Shown here: piece by piece, positions 1 through 14,037 of the stretch
How positions within the stretch are numbered: position 1 is the stretch's first letter
Layout of the letters: every line of letters starts with the position of its first letter
Assembly (NCBI GenBank): GCA_046597055.1
Contig: JBKJLC010000003.1
Span: 1-14,037, forward strand
Direction: 5' to 3'
Source: Kofleriaceae bacterium
GTDB lineage: Bacteria; Myxococcota_A; Polyangia; Haliangiales; Haliangiaceae
Length of the DNA: 14,037 bases
Translations under genes and position numbers: made by a program
The notes under the pieces: generated by a model
The model's database searches: none
The model's input: only the letters and a program-made list of their open reading frames with translations
What the model was told of the DNA's origin: nothing

Positions 1-43
1 CCGCGGGGAGCGAGGGCGACCCACCTCACCTCACACGGATGGG

Positions 44-62
44 TTGACGGCGCCCGCGTCAA
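44..62. promoter_or_regulatory. Dyad TTGACG-N7-CGTCAA, possible activator (enhancer-binding protein) site
   Basis: Perfect 6-bp inverted repeat (44-49 / 57-62) about 40 bp upstream of a sigma54-like motif. Function is inferred only. Confidence 0.3.
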
Positions 63-101
63 AGCAGCCGTCGCGCCCATGGGTTCTCGCGCTGTTGTGA
101 C

Positions 102-117
102 GGGCTCGGTGCTTGCA
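102..117 (+). promoter_or_regulatory. Putative sigma54 (-24/-12) promoter of the surface-protein gene
   Basis: GGGCTCGGTGCTTGCA versus consensus TGGCACG-N4-TTGCW. GG and GC have the correct spacing and TTGCA is intact. ATG follows at 131. Confidence 0.45.
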
Positions 118-130
118 CGCATGATGCCCC

Positions 131-3100
131 ATGGGCGTTCTGCTACGCAGGAAGACGAGACGGGATCTGTCGAAAGGTACGAGGGCAGGCAGCCGGAGGG
201 GGACCTTGCGCGGTGCGGCGATCCTGCTCTCGGTGGCCGGTGTCGTCGGCTGCGCCGGCGACGATGGCCCGGCGCTCGGCGCGGTGTCGCAGGCCATCGG
301 GCTGGCGCCGGTGAATCAGCTGCCGCCGCAACAGACCACCAACGAGGACAGTCCGCTGTTCTTCTCGGCGGTCGGGGGCAACGCGCTCTCGGTGTCCGAC
401 GGTGACAACGCGACGCTGACGGTGCAGATCAACGTCACCAACGGGACGTTCGTGCTCGGCCCCACCACGACCGGCCTGGCGGTGTCGGGCAACGGCACGT
501 TCAGCGTAACCTTGTCAGGATCAACGGGCGATCTCGTCCGTGGCCTCGATGGCGCCTACTACCGGCCGACCGCCGACTACAACGGACCAGCGACGCTGCA
601 GATGAACAGCAGCGACTCGAACGGCGAGAGCGATCTCGACATTCTTGCCATCACCGTCACCGCGTTCAACGACCCCCCGGTCAACATGGTGCCGACCACG
701 GTCGAGGCGGCGACCGAGGACGTGCCGCGGGCCTTCACCCTCTCGGTCAGCGACGTCGACGTCGCTGGCGCACCGCTGGTCATCTCGCTCACGGCCAGCA
801 ACGCCACCCTGATCACGCTACCGACGATCGCCGGGCTGACCTTCTCGTCCGGGGACGGCACCGCCGATGCCACGCTGACGTTCAGCGGCACGCTCCCGGA
901 CGTCAACGCCGCCCTCAACGGGCTGGTGATCACGCCGCCGCTCAACTACATCGGCGCGAGCACCCTCGTCATCACCAGCAACGATCAGGGTGCGACCGGC
1001 ACCGGGGTGGGCGCGCCCGGTTCCGACAACGACACGATCACCCTGGCCTGGGCGGCGGTCAACGATCCGCCGGTCAACAGCGTGCCGGCCACCCAGAGCA
1101 TCGCCGAGGACGCCACGCTGACGTTCAGCGCCGGCGCCGGCAACCTGCTGACCGTCACCGACGTCGACGCCAGCACGGCGCTGGTCCAGGTGACGCTCAC
1201 CGCGACCAACGGCACCGCGAGCCTCGGCAACCCGGCCAGCGTCACCTTCACCAGCGGCGACGGCAACGCCGATGCCACCATGACCTTCAGCGGCACGCTG
1301 TCCGCGCTGGGCTCGGCGCTGGCCGGGACGGTGTATACGCCGAACGCCAACTTCGCTGGCACCGGCACGCTGACGATGGTCTCGAACGACCTCGGCAACA
1401 GCGGCAGCGGCGGGGCCCGCATGGACACCGACGTGGTCACGATCAACGTCAGCGCCATCAACGACGCACCGGTCAACAGCGTCCCGGGCTCGCAGCTGAC
1501 CAACGAGGATGTCGCGCGGGTCTTCTCGACCGCGAACGGCAACGCCATCGCCATCACCGACGCCGACGCGTCGTCGGTCCAGGTCACGCTGACCGCCACC
1601 AACGGCACTGTGACGCTCGGCAGCAGGACCGGCCTGACCTTCCAGACCGGCGATGGCACCAGCGATGCGATCATGACCTTCGCCGGCACCGTGGCGTCGA
1701 TCAACGCCGGGCTCAACGGGACCAGCTTCGCCCCGCCGGCCAACTTCTCGGGCGCGGGCTCGCTGGTGGTCACGACCAGCGATCTGGGCGCCACCGGCGC
1801 CGGCGGCATCCTGACCGACACCGACACCATCGCGATCACGATCGCGCCGGTCAACGACCCGCCGACCGCGGCCAACGACGTCCTGACGGTCGCCGAGGAT
1901 GCCACGCCGACCACCGTCGCCGTCCTCGCCAACGATGGCATCGCACCTGACGTCGGCGAGTCGCTGATCGTCAGCGCGGTCGCCCAGCCGCTGCACGGCA
2001 CGACCTCGACCGATGGCAGCCAGGTGACCTACCAGCCGGTCGCCAACTACCACGGCCCCGACAGCTTCTCGTACACGATCGGTGATGGCTCCGGCGGGAC
2101 CGCCACCGGCGTCGTCTCCGTCACCGTCACCAGCGTCAATGACAATCCGACCGCGGCCGCCGACAGCTACTCGGTCATCTCCGATTCTCTCGAGAACTTC
2201 TTGGCCGTCCTCAGCAACGACGGCATCGAGCCCGACGTGGGCGAGACGCTCACGATCACCGCGGCCGGCCCGCCGGCCCACGGCACCGTGACGATCGTCA
2301 ACGGCGGCACCCGGGTGAACTACATCCCGACCGGAGGCTACAGCGGCGCGGATGCGTTCAACTACACGATCAGCGACGGCCGGGGCGGCACCGCGACGGC
2401 GACCGTCACGATCACAGTGGTCCTGGTGATCACGCAACCGGTGAACTCCTTGCCGGTGCCGCAGACCATCATCGAGGACAGCCCGCTGACCTTCTCGAGT
2501 GGTGCCGGCAACGCGATCACGGTATCCGATGCCAACAACACCGACATGACCGTGCAGGTGCTGGTCACGAATGGCACCTTCACGCTCAACCCCAGCGTCA
2601 CCGGCCTGGCCGTGGCGGGCAACGGGACCAGCACCGTGCAAGCGACCGGCGCCGTCACCCTGCTCAACAGCGCGCTCAACGGCGCCAGATATTCCCCCGC
2701 GCAGGACTTCCACGGCGCCGCCTCGCTGACGATCAACAGCAGCGCCGGCGGCGAGAGCGACCTCGATCGCCTGACGTTGGCGGTGACCTCGTCCAACGAC
2801 CCGCCGGTGATCTCGTTCCCGCTCGGGGCCCAGCCGGCGACCGAGGACTCGCCGCGCGCGTTCAGCAACATCTCGATCTCCGACGTCGACCTCAGCGGCG
2901 CCGAGCTGCTGGTCTCGCTCACCGTCGACAATGGCACCACGGTCTCGCTGGCGGCGACCGGCGGCCTGACCTTCTCGGCCGGCGACGGCACCGGCGACAC
3001 CACCATGAGCTTCGCCGGCACCCTGGCCAGCGTCAACGTCGCCCTCAATGGCCTCACGATCACCCCGCCGGCCAACTACATCGGTCCAAGCACGCTCAGA

Positions 3101-5977
3101 CTCACCAGCAACGACCAGGGCAGCACCGGCGCTGGCCTGGCTGGTTCGGACTCCGAGACGGTCAGCCTGAGCTGGTCGTCTGTCAACGACCCGCCGATCA
3201 ACGCCGTGCCCGGATCGCAGACCGCGAGCGAGGACGGCACCTTCGTCTTCACGTCGACCGCCGGCACCGCGCTGACCGTGAGCGATCTCGACGTCGCCGC
3301 CGCCACGATGCAGGTGACGCTGACCGCCACCAACGGCACGATGACGCTCGGCACCCCGAGCTCGGTGACGTTCACGGCCGGCGACGGCACGTCCGATGTG
3401 ACCATGACCTTCCGCGCCACCCTCACCCAGGTCAACCAGGCACTCGAGGGCACCAGCTTCCGCCCCAACCCGAACTTCGCCGGGACCGGCACCGTGACGA
3501 TGCTGTCGAACGATCTGGGCAACACCGGTGGCACCGCGCAGACCGACACCGACGTCATCACCGTCGGGATCGCACCGATCAACGATGCGCCGGTGATCGC
3601 GGTGCCGTCGCCGCTCACGACCAACGAGGACGTGACGCGCATCCTGTCCGTGGGCCAGGGCAACGCGGTGACGGTCACCGACGTCGACGCGACGGCCGTG
3701 CAGGTCACCCTCACCGGCTCGGCGGCGACCCTCACGCTGGCCAGCATCACCGGGCTCACCTTCCAGGCCGGCGACGGCAGCAACGACAGCACGATGACGT
3801 TCATCGGCACGCCGACCGCGGCCACCGCCGCGATGAACGGGATGAGCTTCATCCCCACCCCGCAATACATCGGCACCGGCAGCCTGCAGATCTACGTCAG
3901 CGACCTCGGCGCCACCGGCGCCGGTGGCCCGCTCACCGACCAGGACCAGGTCATGGTCACGATCGTCTCCGTCAACGACCCGCCCGATGCGGTCGCCGAC
4001 ACCGCCACCACCAGCGAGGACGCGCCGGCGATCACGATCAACGTGCTCGGCAACGACACCACGCTGCCCGACGTCGGCGAGTCCCTCACGATCACGGCGC
4101 TGGGCGCGCCGCTGCGCGGCACGGCGGTGCTCGTCAGCAACGGCACCCTGGTGAACTACACGCCGACCGCCAACTACCACGGGCCGGACAGCTTCACGTA
4201 CACCGTCACCGACGGCGTCGGCGGCATCGACACCGCGACCGTCTCGGTGACCGTCACCAGCGTCAACGATCTTCCCACCGCGGTCGACGACACCTTCACG
4301 GTGGGCGAGAACGCGCTCAACGCCCCCCTCGCGGTGCGCGCCAACGACACCGCCGCTCCCGACACCGGCGAGGTGCTGACCGTGACCGCGGTGACGACGC
4401 CGACCCATGGCACCGCGACCATCACCGGCGCCGGTGCCACGACCGCGGTCAGCTACACGCCGGCCGCCGGCTACAACGGCCCCGACAGCTTCCGCTACAC
4501 GCTGTCCGACGGCAACGGCGGGACCGCGACCGCCACCGTGTCGATCACGGTCACCTCGACCGACACCCAGCCGGTCGCGGTCAACGACACGCTCACCGTC
4601 ATGGAGGACGTCAGCGGCACCGTCGCGGTCGTCACCAACGACACCGGCCGGGGCGACGCACCGCTGACGGTCGCGATCACGACCCCGCCGGCCCACGGCA
4701 CCACCGTCGTGCTGCCTGATCTGCGGGTGACGTACACGCCCGCGGCCAACTACTTCGGCCCCGACCCGTTCTCGTACACGCTGACCGACGCCGATGGTGA
4801 CTTCGCGATCGGCATGGTCACGGTGACCGTCACGTCGGTCGATGACGTGGTGGTCGCGGTGGCCGACATGCTCACGGTGGTGGAGGACGAGGTAGCCGCG
4901 CTGCCGGTGCTCGCCAACGACACCGGGCTCGGTGACGGTGGGCTGACCGTCACGATCGTCACGGCGACGACCCACGGGACGCTGGCGGTCGCGCTCGACG
5001 GAACGATCACCTACACCCCGGCCGCCGGATACTTCGGGCCCGACACCCTCACCTACCGCGTCCGCGATGCGGATGGCGACCAGGCGATGGCGCTCGCCAC
5101 GCTCACGGTCACGCCGGTCAACGACCCGCCGCGTCCGGTCAGCGACCTGCTGTCAACGCGGACCGGGGAGGCGCGCACGATCGACGTCCGCACCAACGAT
5201 GTCGACCCCGACGGCGACACCCTCACGGTCACCGCCGTGACGGTCCCGCTGCACGGAACTGCCGCGATCGGTGGTGATGGCCTGGTCACGTACACCCCGA
5301 TGACGGGCTACACCGGTGCCGACGAGTTCAGCTACACCGTCAGCGATGGCAACGGCGGCACCGCCAGTGCGATCGTGATGGTCGGCGTCGGCCTCGATCG
5401 GGACGGCGACGGGTTGCTCGACGTCGACGAGCTCCTGGTTCACCTCACCGATCCCGACCAGCGCGACACCGATCAGGACCTGATCGACGACGGCGTCGAG
5501 ATCCGCGTCACCTTGACCAATCCGCTCGACGACGATGGCGACGACGACGGCCTTCTCGACGGCCACGAGGACACCAGCAAGAACGGTGCGCTCGACACCG
5601 GCGAGACCTCGCCGACGATCGCGGACACTGACCAGGACGGGCTCGGCGACGGCCTCGAGCGCGGGCGCGCGACCCCCGAGGGCACCGACACCGTGGCCGC
5701 GATGTTCGTCGCCGACGCCGACCCGACCACCACCACCGACCCGCGCCTGGTCGACACCGACGGCGGCGGCAAGGACGATGGCGCCGAGGACCGCAACGGC
5801 AACGGCCGCGTCGACGGCATCGAGGGCGATCCCAACGATCCGTCCGACGACGTGGCGGCCCCGCCTCCCGATGACGGCGGCGGCTGTCACGTGGCCGCCA
5901 GTCCGGCCGGCGCCAGCTGGCTGCTCGCCGCCCTCGGCATCATCGGCCTGGTCCGCCGCCGCCGCCGCGCCCGCTGA
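131..5977 (+). CDS. Large cell-surface adhesin-like protein: Ig/cadherin-like (tandem-95/Big_9-type) repeats, Asp-rich Ca-binding repeats, MYXO-CTERM-type sorting signal
   Basis: 1948-aa ORF. Basic N-terminus and hydrophobic stretch ending LLSVAGVVGC. Repeats bounded by VND(P/A)P..ED motifs, with YTPxxxYxGxDxFxYTxxDG motifs. DxDxDG repeats at ~5395-5850. C-terminus GGGC...WLLAALGIIGLVRRRRRAR. Exact start is uncertain. Confidence 0.92.
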   Translation: MGVLLRRKTRRDLSKGTRAGSRRGTLRGAAILLSVAGVVGCAGDDGPALGAVSQAIGLAPVNQLPPQQTTNEDSPLFFSAVGGNALSVSDGDNATLTVQINVTNGTFVLGPTTTGLAVSGNGTFSVTLSGSTGDLVRGLDGAYYRPTADYNGPATLQMNSSDSNGESDLDILAITVTAFNDPPVNMVPTTVEAATEDVPRAFTLSVSDVDVAGAPLVISLTASNATLITLPTIAGLTFSSGDGTADATLTFSGTLPDVNAALNGLVITPPLNYIGASTLVITSNDQGATGTGVGAPGSDNDTITLAWAAVNDPPVNSVPATQSIAEDATLTFSAGAGNLLTVTDVDASTALVQVTLTATNGTASLGNPASVTFTSGDGNADATMTFSGTLSALGSALAGTVYTPNANFAGTGTLTMVSNDLGNSGSGGARMDTDVVTINVSAINDAPVNSVPGSQLTNEDVARVFSTANGNAIAITDADASSVQVTLTATNGTVTLGSRTGLTFQTGDGTSDAIMTFAGTVASINAGLNGTSFAPPANFSGAGSLVVTTSDLGATGAGGILTDTDTIAITIAPVNDPPTAANDVLTVAEDATPTTVAVLANDGIAPDVGESLIVSAVAQPLHGTTSTDGSQVTYQPVANYHGPDSFSYTIGDGSGGTATGVVSVTVTSVNDNPTAAADSYSVISDSLENFLAVLSNDGIEPDVGETLTITAAGPPAHGTVTIVNGGTRVNYIPTGGYSGADAFNYTISDGRGGTATATVTITVVLVITQPVNSLPVPQTIIEDSPLTFSSGAGNAITVSDANNTDMTVQVLVTNGTFTLNPSVTGLAVAGNGTSTVQATGAVTLLNSALNGARYSPAQDFHGAASLTINSSAGGESDLDRLTLAVTSSNDPPVISFPLGAQPATEDSPRAFSNISISDVDLSGAELLVSLTVDNGTTVSLAATGGLTFSAGDGTGDTTMSFAGTLASVNVALNGLTITPPANYIGPSTLRLTSNDQGSTGAGLAGSDSETVSLSWSSVNDPPINAVPGSQTASEDGTFVFTSTAGTALTVSDLDVAAATMQVTLTATNGTMTLGTPSSVTFTAGDGTSDVTMTFRATLTQVNQALEGTSFRPNPNFAGTGTVTMLSNDLGNTGGTAQTDTDVITVGIAPINDAPVIAVPSPLTTNEDVTRILSVGQGNAVTVTDVDATAVQVTLTGSAATLTLASITGLTFQAGDGSNDSTMTFIGTPTAATAAMNGMSFIPTPQYIGTGSLQIYVSDLGATGAGGPLTDQDQVMVTIVSVNDPPDAVADTATTSEDAPAITINVLGNDTTLPDVGESLTITALGAPLRGTAVLVSNGTLVNYTPTANYHGPDSFTYTVTDGVGGIDTATVSVTVTSVNDLPTAVDDTFTVGENALNAPLAVRANDTAAPDTGEVLTVTAVTTPTHGTATITGAGATTAVSYTPAAGYNGPDSFRYTLSDGNGGTATATVSITVTSTDTQPVAVNDTLTVMEDVSGTVAVVTNDTGRGDAPLTVAITTPPAHGTTVVLPDLRVTYTPAANYFGPDPFSYTLTDADGDFAIGMVTVTVTSVDDVVVAVADMLTVVEDEVAALPVLANDTGLGDGGLTVTIVTATTHGTLAVALDGTITYTPAAGYFGPDTLTYRVRDADGDQAMALATLTVTPVNDPPRPVSDLLSTRTGEARTIDVRTNDVDPDGDTLTVTAVTVPLHGTAAIGGDGLVTYTPMTGYTGADEFSYTVSDGNGGTASAIVMVGVGLDRDGDGLLDVDELLVHLTDPDQRDTDQDLIDDGVEIRVTLTNPLDDDGDDDGLLDGHEDTSKNGALDTGETSPTIADTDQDGLGDGLERGRATPEGTDTVAAMFVADADPTTTTDPRLVDTDGGGKDDGAEDRNGNGRVDGIEGDPNDPSDDVAAPPPDDGGGCHVAASPAGASWLLAALGIIGLVRRRRRAR

Positions 5978-6034
5978 CGGGCGGCCTCGCACACGCGGCC
6001 GGCCGGTGAACGTCGTGCGCACCGGGCCGCCCGG

Positions 6035-6267
6035 TCACCGCGTGCGCTCGCCGGCCCGCCCCCTCACCGGGTGCGCTCGCCGGCCCGCCCGGTCACCGCG
6101 TGCGCTCCCCGGCCCGCCCCTCACCGCGTGCGCTCCCGGCCCGCCCCTCACCGCGTGCGCTCCCCGGCCCGCCCCCTCACCGGGTGCGCTCGCCGGCCCG
6201 CCCCTCACCGGGTGCGCTCCCGGCCCGCCCCTCACCGCGTGCGCTCCCCGGCCCGCCCGGTCACCGC
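6035..6267. repeat. Intergenic tandem repeat, 8 full units of 27-29 bp (TCACCGsGTGCGCTCsCCGGCCCGCCCC)
   Basis: Units start at 6035, 6064, 6093, 6121, 6148, 6177, 6205 and 6232, with a partial unit at 6261 and a degenerate partial at ~6014-6034. Length varies in the C-runs. There are no spacers. Confidence 0.95.
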
Positions 6268-6320
6268 AGCGCAGACCTCTCGATCGAACCCGTCTCCCCA
6301 TGCAATCGAGAGCGCTCCCC

Positions 6321-6366
6321 TTTCCCGGTGGCCCTGAGCCGGCGCCGAAGGCGCCGTGTCGAAGGG
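6321..6366 (+). repeat. REP-like palindromic element, copy A
   Basis: TTTCCCGGTGGCCCTGAGC-CGGCGCC GAA GGCGCCG-TGTCGAAGGG. Confidence 0.9.
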
Positions 6367-6410
6367 TAGACGCGCAGGTGGTGGCCGCGCTCCTCGATGG
6401 CGGGCTGCGG

Positions 6411-6459
6411 CCCTCCGACTTCGGGCTCGCAACGAGCCCTTCGCTCAGGGACACCGAAA
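6411..6459 (-). repeat. REP-like element, copy B (inverted partner of A)
   Basis: Minus strand reads TTTCGGTGTCCCTGAGC-GAA GGGCTCG TTG CGAGCCC GAA-GTCGGAGGG. Arms are conserved and the inner stem differs. Confidence 0.8.
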
Positions 6460-6616
6460 CATTGTGCTGGATGGGCAGCCGGCAGCCGGACGTGGTGCCA
6501 CAGGTGATGAGCGCCAGTAGCCCCGCCGGGCGCTCCGCACTGACCACTCGGTTCGCCACTGCGTCCGGTTTCCGGACGGATCAGGATCGTGATGACGGAG
6601 CTCCGGCGGCTTGCGC

Positions 6617-6632
6617 TGGCATGCGCCCTGCT
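6617..6632 (+). promoter_or_regulatory. Putative sigma54 (-24/-12) promoter of the GIY-YIG gene
   Basis: TGGCATGCGCCCTGCT matches TGGCACG-N4-TTGCW at 10 of 12 specified positions with correct GG/GC spacing. It ends 19 nt before ATG 6652. Confidence 0.5.
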
Positions 6633-6651
6633 CTGCAGGCGTCGCCCAGCC

Positions 6652-6972
6652 ATGAAGCCATTCCATGTCTACATGCTCCGGTGCTCGGACGGGTCGTACT
6701 ACGTCGGCCACACCGATGACCTGGAGACCCGACTGCGTCACCACCACGACGGTGCGGCTCCTGACAGCTACACCTCGACGCGCCGGCCGGTTGAGCTGGT
6801 GTTTGCGTGCGAGCACGCCACCCGCGTCGAGGCACTCGAACGCGAGCGACAGCTCAAGGGCTGGAGCCGGGCGAAGAAGGAAGCCCTGGAACGCGCCGAC
6901 TGGGCGCAGATCCGGACCCTCGCACGGCGGCGGGGACGTCCCCGCGATGTCGCCCGCGACGGAAGCAAGTGA
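6652..6972 (+). CDS. GIY-YIG nuclease family protein (UPF0213/YhbQ-like), 106 aa
   Basis: MKPFHVYMLRCSDGSYYVGHTDDLETRLRHH...YT..RRPVELV...EALERERQLKGWSRAKKEAL. It has the VY/YYVG pair, the conserved Arg and His, the catalytic Glu, and the typical 'KGWSRAKK' tail. Start 6652 is preferred over 6589. Confidence 0.92.
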   Translation: MKPFHVYMLRCSDGSYYVGHTDDLETRLRHHHDGAAPDSYTSTRRPVELVFACEHATRVEALERERQLKGWSRAKKEALERADWAQIRTLARRRGRPRDVARDGSK

Positions 6973-7020
6973 CTCTGCACGTGCGGATGGCGACGGCGGG
7001 TGCCCTGGAAAGGATCCTCA

Positions 7021-7064
7021 CCCTTCGACACGGCCCCTTCGGGGCCGGCTCAGGGCCACCGGAA
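7021..7064 (-). repeat. REP-like element, copy C
   Basis: Minus strand reads TTCCGGTGGCCCTGAGC-CGGCCCC GAA GGGGCCG-TGTCGAAGGG. Confidence 0.9.
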
Positions 7065-7080
7065 TTGAAGTTGACCTCCG

Positions 7081-7096
7081 GCGCAGGGCCACCGGG
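7081..7096 (-). repeat. Half copy of the REP-like element (5' arm only)
   Basis: GCGCAGGGCCACCGGG matches GCTCAGGGCCACCGGG at 15 of 16 positions. A weaker trace (GCTCGAGGGCCAC) lies at ~7102-7114. Confidence 0.6.
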
Positions 7097-7140
7097 CTCG
7101 CGCTCGAGGGCCACATCTCGATGTGGACGGCAGGTTTCCA

Positions 7141-7235
7141 TTTCCCGGTGGCCCTGAGCCGGCGCCGTCCTTCGACTCGGCCGTCGCTCCGCGCCGGTCC
7201 TCGCTCGGGATGCTCGGGCGCGCCGTGTCGAAGGG
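7141..7235 (+). repeat. REP-like element, copy D, with a ~50-bp insertion in its loop
   Basis: TTTCCCGGTGGCCCTGAGCCGGCGCCG [7168-7217] GCGCGCCGTGTCGAAGGG. Confidence 0.88.
7168..7217 (-). repeat. Nested REP-like element of a divergent subtype, inverted, inside copy D
   Basis: Minus strand reads CCGAGCATCCCGAGC-GAGGACCGGCGC GGA GCGACGGCCGA-GTCGAAGGA. It shares the CCyGAGC...GTCGAAGG arms. Confidence 0.7.
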
Positions 7236-7284
7236 CAGCTCTCGGGATTTAGTACAAGTCTTCATGTGATCGGAAGTGCTCACC

Positions 7285-7330
7285 TTTCCCGGTGGCCCTG
7301 AGCCGGCGCCGCAGGCGCCGTGTCGAAGGG
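7285..7330 (+). repeat. REP-like element, copy E
   Basis: Identical to copy A at 45 of 46 positions (loop GCA instead of GAA). Confidence 0.92.
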
Positions 7331-7369
7331 CAGAGCGCGAAGGTGCCGAACGTGATCTCCGACGGGCTG

Positions 7370-7417
7370 CCCTTCGACGGCGGGCGCTCGCGCTCGCCCT
7401 GGCTCAGGGCCACCGGG
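7370..7417 (-). repeat. REP-like element, copy F (inverted partner of E)
   Basis: Minus strand reads CCCGGTGGCCCTGAGC-CA GGGCG AGCGCGAG CGCCC GCC-GTCGAAGGG. Confidence 0.85.
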
Positions 7418-7504
7418 CAAGATGTGCGGGATCCTGAGGGCAGCTGCAGCGCGTTCCTCGAACTGGGGCCTTTGACCACGGACTGCCAGGCGCGCCAATG
7501 CCGA

Positions 7505-8041
7505 TCAGGCGTCGTCGGGGGCGTGGCGGCGGCGCGCGGCCTCGAAGGCGGGATCGATCACGACCGCGGCCGGGCGGGCCGGGGCGTGCGGGGCGAAGCG
7601 GTCGCGGGCGTCGGGACGGACGTCGGTGCGCCAGCGCGGGCGGGGACCCGGGTCGGCCTGGGTCTCGATCGACCAGGCGGTCCAGGGATCGTCGGGAACG
7701 TTCGGGCTGGGATCGACGCTCCGGCAGGCGACCTGGACCAGCGGGCGGGCGGCGTGGATCGCGCGGAACAGCGCGTCGACCTCGACGAAGAAGAGGTCCC
7801 AGTCGATCTCCATCGAGCGGGTGCGCACGATCACCCAGGCCCAGTCGTCGGCCCAGGTCCAGCGATCGAAGCCGTCGAGGCGCACCGCGCGGAAACCGTC
7901 GAGGATCTGCTCGAGCGCGGCGGCGATCGTGGCCCGATCGGCGGCCTGCGGCGCCTGGGCGAACTGCACCTCGTAGTCGAGGCGTCCGCCGCCGTACCAC
8001 TCGCTCGGCTGCGCACCGTAGAACCGGAAGGGCCAGACCAT
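7505..8041 (-). CDS. Hypothetical protein (~178 aa, Trp-rich)
   Basis: Protein-like composition from MVWPFRFYG onward, and it fills the gap between the repeat cluster and the divergent dehydrogenase. The longer start (8215) overlaps the dehydrogenase and was rejected. No family recognised. Confidence 0.75.
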   Translation of the reverse strand: MVWPFRFYGAQPSEWYGGGRLDYEVQFAQAPQAADRATIAAALEQILDGFRAVRLDGFDRWTWADDWAWVIVRTRSMEIDWDLFFVEVDALFRAIHAARPLVQVACRSVDPSPNVPDDPWTAWSIETQADPGPRPRWRTDVRPDARDRFAPHAPARPAAVVIDPAFEAARRRHAPDDA

Positions 8042-8108
8042 GGCGCGCATCCTCGCACGGGTCCGGCCCGCTGGTCGGCGGTCGCGACGCCCGTGGTAGG
8101 GTGCGCCG

Positions 8109-9257
8109 GTGTTGACGCCCAAGCCGTCGTACCACGTGGTCCTCTTGCCCGGCGACGGCATCGGCGCCGAGGTCGCCGGCGATGCCCGCGCCCTGCTCGA
8201 GGCGCTCGCGCCCAAGCTCGGCGTCGGACTCGAGCTCGAGGAGATCCCGTGCGGCGGGCGCTTCTACCTGCAGCACGGCCGCCGCGACTGGCCCGAGGGT
8301 GCCGAGGAGCGCTGTGCAGCCGCCGACGTGATCCTGCTGGGCGCGGTCGGCTGGAACGGGCTCGACGGTCAGCCGGTCACGATGGCCGACGGCAAGATGG
8401 CCGGCTGGTCGCCCGTGATCGGCAATCGCCTGCGGCTCGGGCTCTACGCCAACGTGCGGCCGATCCGGCTGCTCAAGGGCATCAAGCACGGGCTGTCGGG
8501 CCGGTTCACCCAGGTGTGGGAGCCCGGCATGGTCGACATGGTGATGTTCCGCGAGAACACCGAGGGCCTCTACAGCGGCATCGGCGGCGTGATCGGCGAC
8601 GCCGCGATCGACACCCGGGTGATCACGCGCGCGGCCTCGCGCCGGGTCATCCGCAAGGCGTTCGAGCTGTCGCGCGCGCGCGGCAAGGGCGCGCCGGTCG
8701 ACGGCAAGAAGCGGGTCACCTGCGTCGTCAAACACAACGTGCTGTTCGGCTGCAAGCTGTTCCTCGAGGTGTTCAAGGAGGTCGGCGCCGAGTTCACCGA
8801 CATCGAGAAGGACGTCGCGATCGTCGACTCGTTCGCGATGTTCGTCCTGACCCGGCCCGAGGCCTACGACGTGGTGGTCACCACCAACATGTTCGGCGAC
8901 ATCCTCACCGACCTCGGCTCGGTGCTGCAGGGCGGCATGGGCATGGCGGTCGGCTGCAACATCGGCGACGACCACGCGATGTTCGAGCCGATCCACGGCT
9001 CGGCGCCGCCGCTGGCCGGCAAGGACGTCGCCAATCCGCTCGCGATGCTGCTGGCGACCGCGGAGGCGCTGCTGTGGCTCGGCCGCCGGCGCGGCGACGA
9101 GCGGCTGATCCGCGGCGGCAAGGCGATCGACGACGCGATCACCGCCATCGTCGCCCGCGGCAAGCCGCTCACGACCGACCTGGTCGGCGCCGAGCGCGCC
9201 GCGCCGCGGTCGGTGGTCGCGGCCGCGGTGCGCGACGAGACGCTGGCCCGCCTTTAG
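8109..9257 (+). CDS. Isocitrate/isopropylmalate (beta-hydroxyacid decarboxylating) dehydrogenase family protein, LeuB/tartrate-dehydrogenase-like
   Basis: Motifs LPGDGIGAEV, LLGAVG, R..LGLYANVRP, RENTEGLY, KHNV, NMFGDILTD and FEPIHGSAP..AGKDVANP. The substrate cannot be assigned from sequence. Confidence 0.93.
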   Translation: MLTPKPSYHVVLLPGDGIGAEVAGDARALLEALAPKLGVGLELEEIPCGGRFYLQHGRRDWPEGAEERCAAADVILLGAVGWNGLDGQPVTMADGKMAGWSPVIGNRLRLGLYANVRPIRLLKGIKHGLSGRFTQVWEPGMVDMVMFRENTEGLYSGIGGVIGDAAIDTRVITRAASRRVIRKAFELSRARGKGAPVDGKKRVTCVVKHNVLFGCKLFLEVFKEVGAEFTDIEKDVAIVDSFAMFVLTRPEAYDVVVTTNMFGDILTDLGSVLQGGMGMAVGCNIGDDHAMFEPIHGSAPPLAGKDVANPLAMLLATAEALLWLGRRRGDERLIRGGKAIDDAITAIVARGKPLTTDLVGAERAAPRSVVAAAVRDETLARL

Positions 9258-9337
9258 GGCCCGCGAATGATAACTCGCTCGCCCCTCGCGGCCGATCCAT
9301 CCCGGCTGGCTTCGTTGCTCGTCGCATTCGCGGGCCC
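9257..9337. repeat. 13-bp perfect inverted repeat with a 55-nt spacer (MITE-like or structured 3' element)
   Basis: GGGCCCGCGAATG (9257-9269) and CATTCGCGGGCCC (9325-9337), beginning in the TAG stop codon. Confidence 0.6.
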
Positions 9338-9465
9338 GTAGTGCCCGCCGCCCCGCCGAGCGCTGCTGACACAGCGGCGCGCCTCCGCTCGCACCGCGGG
9401 GTCGTCGGTCACCGACCCGGCCGGCGCGCGCGGCGAGCCGGGGCATACTGACGGCTGGAGGCGAC

Positions 9466-10170
9466 ATGCGCAGCAACCTGGTACGACTGACCGGGGCCCT
9501 CGGGCTCTTCGCGATCGCGGCCTGCAACGCCGCGCAGCAGGGCGCCAACGATCGGGTCCTGTTCACGCCGCGCGCGTGCGGCAACCCGCTGCTCGACTGC
9601 ACGTTCGACCGGCCGGTCGCGCACGGCGGCTTCCTCGAGGTGCAGATCCGCGGCGTCGACGGGGCCTCGGTCACCGGGCTCGACGTGGCCTCGAGCAATC
9701 CCGGGATCCTGTCGGTGATCCGCGCACCCGAGGTCGGCGGCGTACCGAGCTGGCAGCTCCACGGCGCCACCGTCGGCGCGGTGACTCTGCGCGCGACCGA
9801 CGCGGGCGCGGAGGTCGACTTCATCGACGTCAGCGTGGTCGCGCCGACCCGGCTCGGCCTGGTCAAGATCGCCGGCACCGCGGTCGGGCCGACCGACGAG
9901 GACGGGGTCGACCAGGCCTGGACGGTCACCGCCGATCAGCTGGTCTCGTTCCAGGTGTTGCCCTACGCGACCAATACCCACCTGATGGGCCGCCTCGACT
10001 ACGCGACCGAGCTGCCGGCCGGATCGACCCTGCTCGCGACCGAGCAGTCGTCGTCGGATCGCACCCAGGGCTACCTGTACGTACAGCCGCCCGCCGGCGA
10101 CTACCCGTTCTCGTTCGCGCTCGCCGCGGATTCGACCATCGCGGTCGACGCGGTGATCCACGCCCGCTGA
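9466..10170 (+). CDS. Putative lipoprotein, beta-rich (possibly Ig-like), function unknown
   Basis: Shine-Dalgarno GGAGG just upstream. Signal peptide with lipobox LGLFAIAA-C. Cys pair (RACGNPLLDC). The 'VASSNPGILSV' stretch recalls Big_2-type domains. Confidence 0.82.
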   Translation: MRSNLVRLTGALGLFAIAACNAAQQGANDRVLFTPRACGNPLLDCTFDRPVAHGGFLEVQIRGVDGASVTGLDVASSNPGILSVIRAPEVGGVPSWQLHGATVGAVTLRATDAGAEVDFIDVSVVAPTRLGLVKIAGTAVGPTDEDGVDQAWTVTADQLVSFQVLPYATNTHLMGRLDYATELPAGSTLLATEQSSSDRTQGYLYVQPPAGDYPFSFALAADSTIAVDAVIHAR

Positions 10171-10183
10171 TATCGTCGGTGCC

Positions 10184-11500
10184 GTGGGAGACGCCGCGCC
10201 CGCGCGCCTGATCGGCCGCTATCTCGTGGTCGGGGCCCTCGGCGAGGGCGCCATGGGCGAGGTCGTGCGCGCGCGCGACGAGCGGCTCGGTCGCGAGGTC
10301 GCGATCAAGAAGGTGAAGAACGTCTTCGGCATGCTGGCCTCGACGTTCCACGCGCGCTTCGAGGCCGAGGCGCGCGCGCTGGCCGCGCTCGCCCACCCCG
10401 GCGTGGTCCAGGTCTTCGACCTCGGCGTCGATGGCGACGAGCCGTACCTGGTGATGGAGCTGGTCGACGGCCCGACCTTGCGCGCGGTCATCACCGACCA
10501 CGGGCCGCTGGCGCCCGCCGACGTGCGCGTGCTCGGCATCCAGCTCGCGCGCGCGCTCGAGGCGGCCCACGCGCGCGGCATCCTGCATCGCGACGTGAAG
10601 CCGGCCAACGTGCTGCGCGCCCCGGGCGGCGTGTGGAAGCTCGCCGACTTCGGCGTCGCCCACGTGCCCGACTCCGACGTGACCGTCACCGGCCAGTTCC
10701 TGGGCACCCCCGCCTATGCCGCGCCCGAGGCGCTGACCGCAGGCGAGTTCAGCCCCGGCTCCGACGTGTACGCGCTGGCGGCGACCTTGGTCGAGGCGGC
10801 CACCGGCAAGAAGCCGCGGCCCGACGCGACCCTGGCCCAGCTGATCGCGCAGTCGAGCGAGCCGGTGGTGCTGACCGCGCTCTCGCCCGAGCTGGCGGCG
10901 GTGCTGGGCCCGGCGCTCGCGCTGGATCCGGCGCGCCGGCCGAGCGCGGCCGTGTTCGCCGAGCGCCTCGCCGCGGCCGCGGTCGTCGGTCGCAACACCC
11001 CGCTGCCCGTGCCCGCGGTCGCCCTGCCGTCGGCGCTCGACGCGACCTCCCCGCTCGGTGCCACCGCCGCCCTGCCCGGCACCTCGCCGCGGGCAACGCC
11101 GGCCACCGCGGTCTCGGTGGTGACCCTGCCCGGGCAGCCCACGGCCCGCCGCCGCCTGCGCGCGCTGGCGATCGCGGGCGGCGTCATCGTGGCGATCGGC
11201 CTGCTCGCGCTCGGCGCCACCAACGACTCGTCGAAGAACGGCGCCGCGGTGCCACTGCCCACCGGTGGCCCCGCTCGCCCGAGCCCCCGGCCCGGGCAAC
11301 CGACCGCGTTCACGGCCCCGCCGGGCCTGGCCGGCAAGGCCGCCCGGGACTGGAGCAAGGTCGCCCAGAAGGTCCACGACGGCGACCCCGACGAGGCGCT
11401 CGACAAGCTGATGGAGTTCGAGCGCAAGCACGGCGCCAGCGCCGAGAGCCGGCGGTTGCGCGCATGGCTCGAGCAGGCCTCGCCACGCTACGACGACTGA
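10184..11500 (+). CDS. Hanks-type Ser/Thr protein kinase, membrane-anchored
   Basis: Motifs GEGAMGEV, VAIK, HRDVKPAN, DFG, GTPAYAAPE and SDVY. Pro/Ala linker, RRR followed by a TM helix (LAIAGGVIVAIGLLALGA), and a short helical C-terminal domain. Confidence 0.95.
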   Translation: MGDAAPARLIGRYLVVGALGEGAMGEVVRARDERLGREVAIKKVKNVFGMLASTFHARFEAEARALAALAHPGVVQVFDLGVDGDEPYLVMELVDGPTLRAVITDHGPLAPADVRVLGIQLARALEAAHARGILHRDVKPANVLRAPGGVWKLADFGVAHVPDSDVTVTGQFLGTPAYAAPEALTAGEFSPGSDVYALAATLVEAATGKKPRPDATLAQLIAQSSEPVVLTALSPELAAVLGPALALDPARRPSAAVFAERLAAAAVVGRNTPLPVPAVALPSALDATSPLGATAALPGTSPRATPATAVSVVTLPGQPTARRRLRALAIAGGVIVAIGLLALGATNDSSKNGAAVPLPTGGPARPSPRPGQPTAFTAPPGLAGKAARDWSKVAQKVHDGDPDEALDKLMEFERKHGASAESRRLRAWLEQASPRYDD

Positions 11501-11504
11501 ACGG

Positions 11505-12380
<876 letters not shown>

Positions 12381-12399
12381 GCCCGGCGAGCGTAGCCGA

Positions 12400-13122
<723 letters not shown>

Positions 13123-13129
13123 GGGGGTC

Positions 13130-13158
13130 AGGGTGCGCACGATGGCCCCCCCTGTCAA
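13130..13158 (-). promoter_or_regulatory. Putative sigma70-type promoter for a leaderless M50 protease transcript
   Basis: Minus strand reads TTGACA-17 nt-CACCCT-7 nt-ATG(13122). The -35 is perfect and the -10 is weak. Confidence 0.5.
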
Positions 13159-13173
13159 ATGCCAGGTACGACG

Positions 13174-13926
13174 CTAACCGCCCGTCCTGGCTCGACGTTC
13201 CACCACCTCCCCGATCCGGCGGGCCAGCTCCTCGCGGTCCTCGCGCTCGATCCAGGGCATCGACACCCGCGCCAGGTCGTCGCCGGCCTGGGTGGTGAAC
13301 CGCAGGTAGTCGCCGATGACCGACACCGTGAACCGCGATCGGCACGGGATGGTGGTGTCGCCGGCGGCGGTCGGGATGACGATGCGGCCGTCGTCGTGGG
13401 CATCGAGGACCCGGCGGGCCCGGGCCCGGAACAGCGAGCGCCGGTACAGCGTCAGGTGGTCGCCGTGGTCGGCGACCAGGACCTTGTCGAGGCCGTGGTC
13501 ACCGGACGGGCCGACCTCGACCGCGCTGCACACCCCGCGCGCCAGCGAGGCCAGCGCGCCCGACAGCCGCCGGGTCAGCCGATCGAGCTGGCGAAGCGAA
13601 GCCAGGCCGTCGGCGTCGTCGATCAGGTCGCGCGGCTCGGCGCCGAACACGCGCTCGACCTCCCCGGGGCGCACCTCGAGCCAGATGCCTACCCCCTCGC
13701 GGGGCAACCCGCGCGCGACCAGCAGCCGGCCGCCGATCGGACGCACCACCCGGCGCATGCGGCGGCGCGCGGCCCGGGTGAACGTGAGCAACCCCTCGGA
13801 GATCGCGAGGTGGACTCCGGCCAGGGCGATCGTGACGTGGTACGGCGCGACCTCGAGGGACATGGTCCCGGCGCGGGTCGGTGACGTCATCACCTCGGCC
13901 ATCAGCGCGTCACGAAACGGCGCCAT
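13174..13926 (-). CDS. Hypothetical protein (~250 aa)
   Basis: Long ORF with protein-like composition, co-oriented with the protease and kinase. No family recognised. Start could be 13926 or a later Met. Confidence 0.75.
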   Translation of the reverse strand: MAPFRDALMAEVMTSPTRAGTMSLEVAPYHVTIALAGVHLAISEGLLTFTRAARRRMRRVVRPIGGRLLVARGLPREGVGIWLEVRPGEVERVFGAEPRDLIDDADGLASLRQLDRLTRRLSGALASLARGVCSAVEVGPSGDHGLDKVLVADHGDHLTLYRRSLFRARARRVLDAHDDGRIVIPTAAGDTTIPCRSRFTVSVIGDYLRFTTQAGDDLARVSMPWIEREDREELARRIGEVVERRARTGG

Positions 13927-13933
13927 TGGTAGA

Positions 13934-14019
13934 TTCTGCCCTTTCACTTGGGGACTTGCGTCGTAGGTGAAAGGGCAGAACCCCCTTTCAAACCGTGCGT
14001 GCGGATTACCCGCACACGG
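13934..14019. promoter_or_regulatory. Inverted-repeat-rich regulatory region
   Basis: 14-bp perfect inverted repeat TTCTGCCCTTTCAC (13934-13947) / GTGAAAGGGCAGAA (13967-13980). A third CCCTTTCA lies at 13983-13990, and a second imperfect hairpin at 13993-14019. Confidence 0.55.
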
Positions 14020-14037
14020 CTTACCGGTGATCTCTCG

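Follow-up and report, generated by a model that had tools for sequence, protein, structure and literature searches.

The closest described relatives of the locus reported here are the Ssn GIY-YIG nucleases, which cut beside the hairpins that flank them and for which an analogy with RAYT has been drawn (Chenal et al. 2025, PMC11893778). In the parts of that paper considered here, Ssn is defined as essentially cd10448 and is compared with REP-associated transposases; SsnA is site-specific on single-stranded DNA (ssDNA) at NTS repeats, and in Neisseria it restricts the integration of incoming DNA that carries such repeats. We describe a 14,037-nucleotide stretch of DNA from a Kofleriaceae bacterium (assembly GCA_046597055.1, contig JBKJLC010000003.1, positions 1 to 14,037; the whole stretch is referred to as the window), in which a short GIY-YIG nuclease gene lies amongst hairpin repeats carrying a CCG-T tag. 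Our analysis makes it probable (about 0.72) that the stand-alone GIY-YIG protein binds the flanking hairpin in ssDNA and cuts just 5′ of the CCG-T tag, and that this protein–repeat pair belongs to a clade distinct from Ssn. The initial annotation had proposed such a pairing as a GIY-YIG analogue of the RAYT–REP partnership of which no characterised example was known to it; this overstated the novelty, as Ssn and its NTS and SRM repeats were characterised in 2025 with the RAYT comparison included (PMC11893778, in the same parts). The separate clade and its repeat are apparently undescribed so far, with word searches of full-text literature and supplements, motif strings included, returning no description of either (figures, some supplements and subscription papers lay outside these searches).

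Association of the repeat with homologues of the nuclease gene

Flanks, here meaning the DNA within 500 bp of a gene, were searched with a structural descriptor made up of the tag, a 3-bp stem, Y-GAG, 3–45 nt, CGA-R and the returning stem. Our two larger sets were the best 80 of 271 (GTDB) and the best 80 of 582 (metagenome) confirmed stretches, and their kinship overlaps. An untuned pattern had placed the repeat near 59/80 of the GTDB homologue loci and near 20/30 and 8/9 loci in two smaller sets, and most of the negatives inspected carry variants with compensatory stem changes; on these sets, which were used for its tuning, the descriptor found 76/80, 29/30 and 8/9. Amongst the held-out metagenome loci the repeat was present in 76/80 and on both sides of the gene in 51/80, with tags facing outward in 43 of these 51, and the reversed control gave 0/80. 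The copies in this set are concentrated around the gene (207 in the 72.6 kb close to it versus 6 in 115.7 kb farther away), at a median distance of 28 bp upstream and 15 bp downstream. The homologues come from Pseudomonadota, Myxococcota, Chloroflexota, Acidobacteriota, Armatimonadota, Gemmatimonadota and other hosts. We note that one armatimonadote locus (L075) has long tandem repeat arrays, with ten copies upstream and eight downstream within 500 bp, mostly at a period of approximately 49–50 bp.

Other GIY-YIG genes behave differently. The descriptor found nothing near 14 YhbQ/YazA-type and 23 Ssn-type control loci, and in five genomes searched for every GIY-YIG gene the window clade was accompanied by its own repeat and several Ssn-type genes by SRM (in the same sphingomonad genomes, 6/13 Ssn-type genes carry SRM instead). 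Viral contigs gave eleven matches, of which the only one belonging to the window clade has the repeat and the remainder, which are YazA-like, do not. By these sequence comparisons the gene–repeat pairing is real and strongly supported: the proposed partnership was borne out by the flank, co-occurrence and control tests, and homologues do not lack flanking repeats, as approximately 95% of those examined have one. That the gene has simply come to lie in one of many repeat clusters by chance, of which there are 185 genome-wide, has next to no probability when 76/80 held-out homologues are flanked versus 0/37 control GIY-YIG loci and the window cluster is the largest in the genome; the homologue flank test rules out such chance placement.

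Repeat copy number and gene presence

The repeat forms a family dispersed throughout the genome. A strict pattern found 270 copies versus 3 for the reversed control, and an anchor count gave 312 in 185 clusters versus 14 for the control, with the window cluster and its six anchors the largest of the 185. Adjacent copies are arranged more often with tags outward (52 pairs) than inward (10 pairs), and 31 doublets of approximately 127 bp have longer conserved flanks in common, like a BIME. The largest clusters are intergenic. The genome scan that the initial annotation had proposed thus found a genome-wide rather than local family, and also placed its largest cluster in the window. The same annotation had held that a repeat common away from GIY-YIG genes would speak against the partnership, and, literally taken, this is what the 185 clusters are; yet it does not count against the partnership, because REP-type repeats are expected to be dispersed through genomes.

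High copy number was shown to track gene presence in two genome samples, as far as sequence counts go. The gene was called at E<1e-25 in 8 of 61 relatives, seven of which have 72–326 copies and the eighth (G040) only 6 strict copies with a repeat variant in the flanks of its gene, while 51 of the 53 relatives without the gene have no more than 13 copies. In the family of G003 (121 genomes), genomes with the gene (n = 43) had a median of 26 copies and those lacking it (n = 77) a median of 2, one genome with a split gene having been excluded.

These counts also bear on the suggestion that a RAYT/Y1 or other transposase moves the repeats, with the GIY-YIG gene as a mere accessory or captured passenger. 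The genome of the window has eight Y1_Tnp matches and three related genomes have 5–9 each, G009 reaches 172 copies with no GIY-YIG gene found, and we know of no strand-transfer chemistry in the hydrolytic GIY-YIG domain. We nevertheless regard this explanation as improbable, as a repeat copy lies near (within approximately 1.5 kb of) only 3/29 Y1_Tnp loci and in each case on one side only, and two genomes with the GIY-YIG gene and many copies (G144 with 153 and G116 with 127) gave no match to PF01797, the one family used in our transposase screen. The Y1_Tnp matches in the genome of the window are weak (E of 7e-9 to 2e-5, on contigs C189, C285, C119, C146, C48, C259, C240 and C249) and are not framed by the repeat.

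Anatomy of the repeat

Each repeat consists of the CCG-T tag, a 3-bp covarying stem and Y-GA-G, followed by a loop which tolerates inserts and then C-GA-R and the returning stem, with an invariant GA/GA mismatch held within the covarying stem. When covariation was measured in 134 copies with the stem letters left free (kin amongst these are not independent), the four pairs outside the GA/GA were kept in 130, 131, 125 and 123 copies, compared with shuffle means of 126, 114, 64 and 45, the last two values in each case being those of the two variable stem positions. The GA/GA of the repeat lies in a Y-GA-R context, in which GA opposite GA can form tandem sheared pairs in DNA, and tandem GA pairs are found in RNA too; in standard folding the GA/GA appears as an internal loop. 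Across homologues conservation ends at the CCG tag and the flank beyond it is G-poor, which resembles NTS (Ssn), the SsnA cut there falling in variable flanking sequence upstream of the hairpin.

The apical loops were C-GNA-G in 80/86 type-A copies, and such loops are found in 130/190 copies on the tag strand and in 5/190 on the other strand. In DNA, GCGNAGC mini-hairpins have an unusually high stability, and the single RNA counterpart mentioned in the part of the source considered is much less stable (PMC13037366). The predominance of C-GNA-G loops indicates single-stranded DNA. A subclade of the nuclease (L039, L073, L048, L062, L066 and L077, with support of 95/90) from Alphaproteobacteria and Eremiobacterota-type hosts is accompanied by repeat variants with TCA or GTCA tags, which is a hint, from sequence, of co-variation between protein and repeat.

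The repeats might instead be RNA elements, either mRNA hairpins or autoregulatory protein-binding sites, with DNA not being the substrate. The intergenic position of the largest clusters and the occurrence of tandem GA pairs in RNA would suit such a role. REPs have also been proposed to act in transcripts (PMC3733652, in the part considered). Against this, copies on the two sides of the gene face opposite ways and a transcript would therefore carry one sense and one antisense copy, GNA triloops are typical of DNA mini-hairpins, there is no terminator signature, and no match at threshold was found in Rfam for the window region and ten homologue loci. SsnA, moreover, ignores RNA (PMC11893778, in the parts considered), and taken together we think an RNA role for these repeats highly improbable.

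The repeat cluster in the window

The cluster consists of the following features, in which the A/B doublet precedes the gene and copy C, the half copy, copy D with its nested copy and the E/F doublet follow it.

6325 to 6366, plus strand: copy A, which forms an inverted doublet with copy B
6411 to 6458, minus strand: copy B, with one change in its right half
6652 to 6972, plus strand: GIY-YIG nuclease gene for a single-domain protein of 106 amino acids, called from its open reading frame (ORF) and Pfam match
7021 to 7062, minus strand: copy C, approximately 50 bp past the stop codon, with its tag outward
approximately 7080 to 7096, minus strand: half copy with only the tag and left arm
7145 to 7235, plus strand: copy D, 91 bp, whose loop contains a second, nested copy
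approximately 7167 to 7212, minus strand: nested copy inside the loop of copy D
7289 to 7330, plus strand: copy E, the left member of the E/F doublet (tags outward, approximately 127 bp), a form which recurs genome-wide with conserved flanks
7370 to 7416, minus strand: copy F, the right member of the same doublet

Copies A and C form an inverted pair of 43 nt spanning the gene which is 95% complementary, and the nested form of D recurs on contigs C239 and C266. A bipartite pattern gave five matches in the window, all of them in the cluster, compared with none in 200 shuffles; D was missed by this pattern because it is too long. The gene and the six full copies, half copy and nested copy reported in the initial annotation were all found on inspection, and a pattern search agreed that there are no copies elsewhere in the 14 kb. 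Two details required revision: the plus-strand copies begin four bases later than had been given, because the earlier starts had counted in a TTTC flank, and the element described as a palindrome of about 46 bp is indeed a repeat, with units of 42–49 bp (D is 91 bp) that are oriented imperfect hairpins and not true palindromes.

The cluster is located between a large gene with immunoglobulin (Ig)/cadherin repeats and an ORF of unknown function adjoining an isocitrate/isopropylmalate dehydrogenase gene. The former (131–5977) encodes a 1948-amino acid protein which ends in a hydrophobic segment and a basic tail at its C terminus and is probably surface-anchored, and it is followed at 5988–6267, immediately upstream of A, by a tandem array of approximately nine copies of a 27–29 bp unit, the core of which occurs only on this contig. 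Contigs from two sequencing runs match 6427–7051 and 6427–7018 without differences, and were not used as they are possibly the source of the assembly itself; joints in these contigs between B and F differ in letters, are likely to be other repeat copies, and were likewise not used.

The nuclease and its relatives

The 106-amino acid protein matches Pfam PF01541 (GIY-YIG) at 6e-17, the only other match being a weak overlapping one to T5orf172, and like Ssn proteins it is thus a single-domain protein of <150 amino acids; nothing in NCBIfam reached the cut-off. It has Y7, Y17, G19, R27, H31 and E65, of which the catalytic-type Y7, Y17, H31 and E65 are invariant in 34 sequences and R27 is at least 90% conserved, as well as the clade signature KGWSRAKK and a C-terminal helix containing W. 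The ratio of non-synonymous to synonymous substitution rates (dN/dS) of the gene was 0.19–0.34 versus six relatives. The predicted fold (predicted local distance difference test, pLDDT, of 86) is closest to the structures of UPF0213 and Slx1, and by sequence the protein matches the UPF0213 entries PDB 1ZG2 and 1YWL at 1e-11 and 7e-10, respectively. Scans for promoters and terminators found none. The genome carries a single gene of this clade; another short, divergent GIY-YIG gene on contig C286 (L105) is without the clade signature and has one repeat copy approximately 1.1 kb away.

We placed the window protein in an unrooted tree of 50 hand-picked rows, without UvrC and Slx1-like proteins, in which the Ssn-type was represented by 15 stand-ins including genes flanked by SRM or NTS-matching repeats (N. 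meningitidis SsnA is not among them). The tree grouped the proteins into the window clade (97/86), the Ssn-type (100/100) and YazA/YhbQ (96/93), and a placement of the window protein beside the Ssn-type rows was not rejected by the approximately unbiased (AU) test (p = 0.41). With five outgroup rows added, the window clade and Ssn-type were sisters (94/89), and alternatives to this placement were not rejected either (p-AU of 0.068 for the disfavoured pairing of the window clade with YazA/YhbQ, and 0.057). Home-made profiles scored the window protein at 141 bits for its own clade, 78 for YazA/YhbQ and 54 for the Ssn-type, and in a BLAST comparison with 21 Ssn-type stand-ins the best E was 1.4e-10 (proteome-size scaling) and none reached E<1e-10 over 75% of the length. 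The motif K.W.R is found in 107/109 window-clade, 18/21 Ssn-type and 0/15 YazA/YhbQ-type proteins and the C-terminal W helix is common to the window clade and Ssn-type only, while a C-x-D motif after the first strand is common to the window clade and the YazA/YhbQ types. A common origin with Ssn is plausible from these sequences.

The similarity to UPF0213 and Slx1, together with the higher profile score to YazA/YhbQ than to the Ssn types and the annotation of E. coli yhbQ as a DNA damage response nuclease, would fit an Slx1/YhbQ-like structure-selective repair nuclease able to resolve hairpins or cruciforms whatever their sequence, and retained where repeats are abundant. This would leave unexplained why one specific tag and GA/GA motif is found at a median of 15–28 bp from the gene, in fixed orientation and across phyla; furthermore, SRM repeats of the same genomes avoid the window-clade gene and true YhbQ/YazA types have no flanking repeat. 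We therefore give a general repair role poor odds.

Proposed mechanism and mobility

We propose that the GA/GA mismatch would form tandem sheared pairs on one strand only, through which the enzyme could read the orientation of the hairpin, and that the enzyme would act on ssDNA exposed by replication, transcription or DNA uptake. When the host repairs the cuts, repeats might then be copied or moved, and at times also the entire unit of 330–500 bp. Our suggestion that cuts seed the repair-mediated spread of repeats and unit is tentative. It is possible, if doubtful, that the unit of 330–500 bp (repeat, gene, repeat) constitutes a minimal autonomous mobile element with a hydrolytic GIY-YIG enzyme and no transposase, the gene-less doublets being its non-autonomous partners. 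In that case an extruded doublet, cut on opposite strands 5′ of its outward tags, would yield two breaks with hairpin ends, each of which would keep a copy to be completed by host repair, and the unit would prefer gene junctions and be repeatedly fused in frame to housekeeping genes.

Stretches around the gene in congeners have little in common beyond the gene and repeats, and some genomes carry two or three paralogues of the nuclease gene. Sorted by neighbourhood, the 110 homologue loci make 59 groups, among them syntenic sets of 12, 23 and 9, and some insertions are therefore old and inherited; such long residence at fixed loci suggests a RAYT-like domestication. Amongst the 29 best-matching Sphingomonas loci, 16 keep rnc upstream at the rnc–era junction, and these comprise four empty loci, one gene-less inverted doublet, one full unit, and, as judged by eye, two SRM-like doublets and eight loci with another repeat family; L018 and seven further loci also have the full unit at this junction. 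The junction shows, from sequence, insertion and loss at a repeat-prone site, although the agent is not thereby identified, and the empty, gene-less doublet and full-unit states fit mobility. The occupant of the junction differs between species (L305–L333 and L018), one of the alternatives being another inverted-repeat family, which has a TTCACGCGGAG core, and by eye the gene-less doublet of L325 has a 9-bp duplication over the overlap of the rnc stop and era start, which is not general.

In many loci a reading frame continues through the repeats. It remains open for >200 codons in 22/23 loci of one sphingomonad set and 8/11 of a Burkholderiales set, and 25/80 metagenome loci have an ORF of >200 codons. 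Six tested examples read into MeaB, a SpoU/TrmJ-type methyltransferase, a deaminase, an RluA-type pseudouridine synthase, JAB and alanine racemase. In-frame fusions to housekeeping genes, which belong to no fewer than six unrelated families, are predicted for L003, L049 and L166 (methyltransferase), L008, L010, L013 and L025 (MeaB), and L029, L052, L063 and L064, and in some of the methyltransferase fusions no separate Met is visible ahead of the second domain.

A number of observations weigh against the proposed nuclease–repeat pair with its ssDNA cleavage at the tag, and against the spread that might follow from it. Nearest-neighbour folding, in which sheared GA pairs are not modelled, gives little difference between the strands for most copies, and the closest upstream copy in the window is B on the minus strand rather than a tag-outward plus copy. 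No gene was found in G009 and G006, with 172 and 74 copies respectively (both are draft assemblies), 8/77 gene-negative sphingomonad genomes have at least 15 copies, and the strict count is below 8 in 7/43 genomes that have the gene; these low counts may be due to stem variants, as seen only for G040. The co-occurrence and covariation statistics are overstated because kin are not independent, and the closer profile score to YazA/YhbQ than to Ssn means that activity cannot simply be transferred from SsnA. Target-site duplications did not exceed chance, with flanking direct repeats of at least 7 bp at 3/59 simple units compared with 8% in shuffles, and duplications at 3/29 doublets compared with 10% in shuffles. 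Finally, the search for empty sites suggested in the initial annotation found empty loci at the rnc–era junction and no clean empty allele for the window locus among relatives. In G014 both downstream genes are kept next to a different upstream gene with neither nuclease nor repeat there, and the upstream gene of the window has 65–67% matches in 3/16 congeners.

Comparison with known systems

If cleavage at the tag is correct, site-specific ssDNA hairpin nucleases would not be confined to cd10448 and would take in a large group (2082 proteins at E≤1e-20) whose present annotation goes no further than 'GIY-YIG family' or UPF0213-like, and the predicted substrate of each could be read from the flanks of its gene. 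The target, with its short stem, GA/GA mismatch and loop taking long inserts, is unlike NTS and would offer a distinct specificity for ssDNA tools. The origin and spread of REP-like repeats without a cognate transposase would become testable, for which the rnc–era series gives natural empty, gene-less and full alleles, and were the unit also to prove a mobile element, there would be an enzyme for REP-like families without a known transposase.

Amongst described repeats, the CGTC-tagged REPs (PMC3733652) are similar in being tagged hairpins in dimers, and the L039, L073 and L062 variants carry a GTCA tag. However, CGTC-1 to -4 have 8–9 bp stems and 4–5 nt loops (Di Nocera et al. 2013, PMC3733652), unlike the window repeat, the motifs of which are absent from the text and supplements of that paper which were searched (the consensus figure lay outside the search). 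As with RAYT/TnpA-REP, each genome has one or a few nuclease genes with their cognate repeats on either side, and as with REP, REPIN and BIME elements there are inverted doublets genome-wide and a patchy distribution with long-lived syntenic loci (PMC6006769, in the part considered). The window enzyme differs from RAYT in being a GIY-YIG (PF01541) and not an HUH Y1 (PF01797) protein and in having no known rejoining chemistry, and its repeats have no GTAG tag. UPF0213/YhbQ/YazA proteins (PDB 1ZG2 and 1YWL; E. coli YhbQ) provide the best sequence and structure matches and have the C-x-D motif in common with it, but form their own group without K.W.R and without a flanking repeat (there is none at E. 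coli yhbQ).

The system most like that of the window is Ssn (NTS/SRM), where a single-domain GIY-YIG gene for approximately 100 amino acids also lies amid oriented hairpin repeats with a 5′ tag, there are hundreds of genomic copies whose number is tied to gene presence, and the protein has K.W.R and the C-terminal W helix. It differs in that the window clade, which is known from sequence alone, is separate and its repeat has the CCG-T tag, short covarying stem and GA/GA mismatch and no SRM: the SRM pattern was found neither in the window nor within 500 bp of the homologue loci (0/80, 0/30 and 0/80). Because the window protein does not group within the Ssn clade and the SRM pattern does not describe its repeat, the two together are likely to represent a sister system to Ssn.

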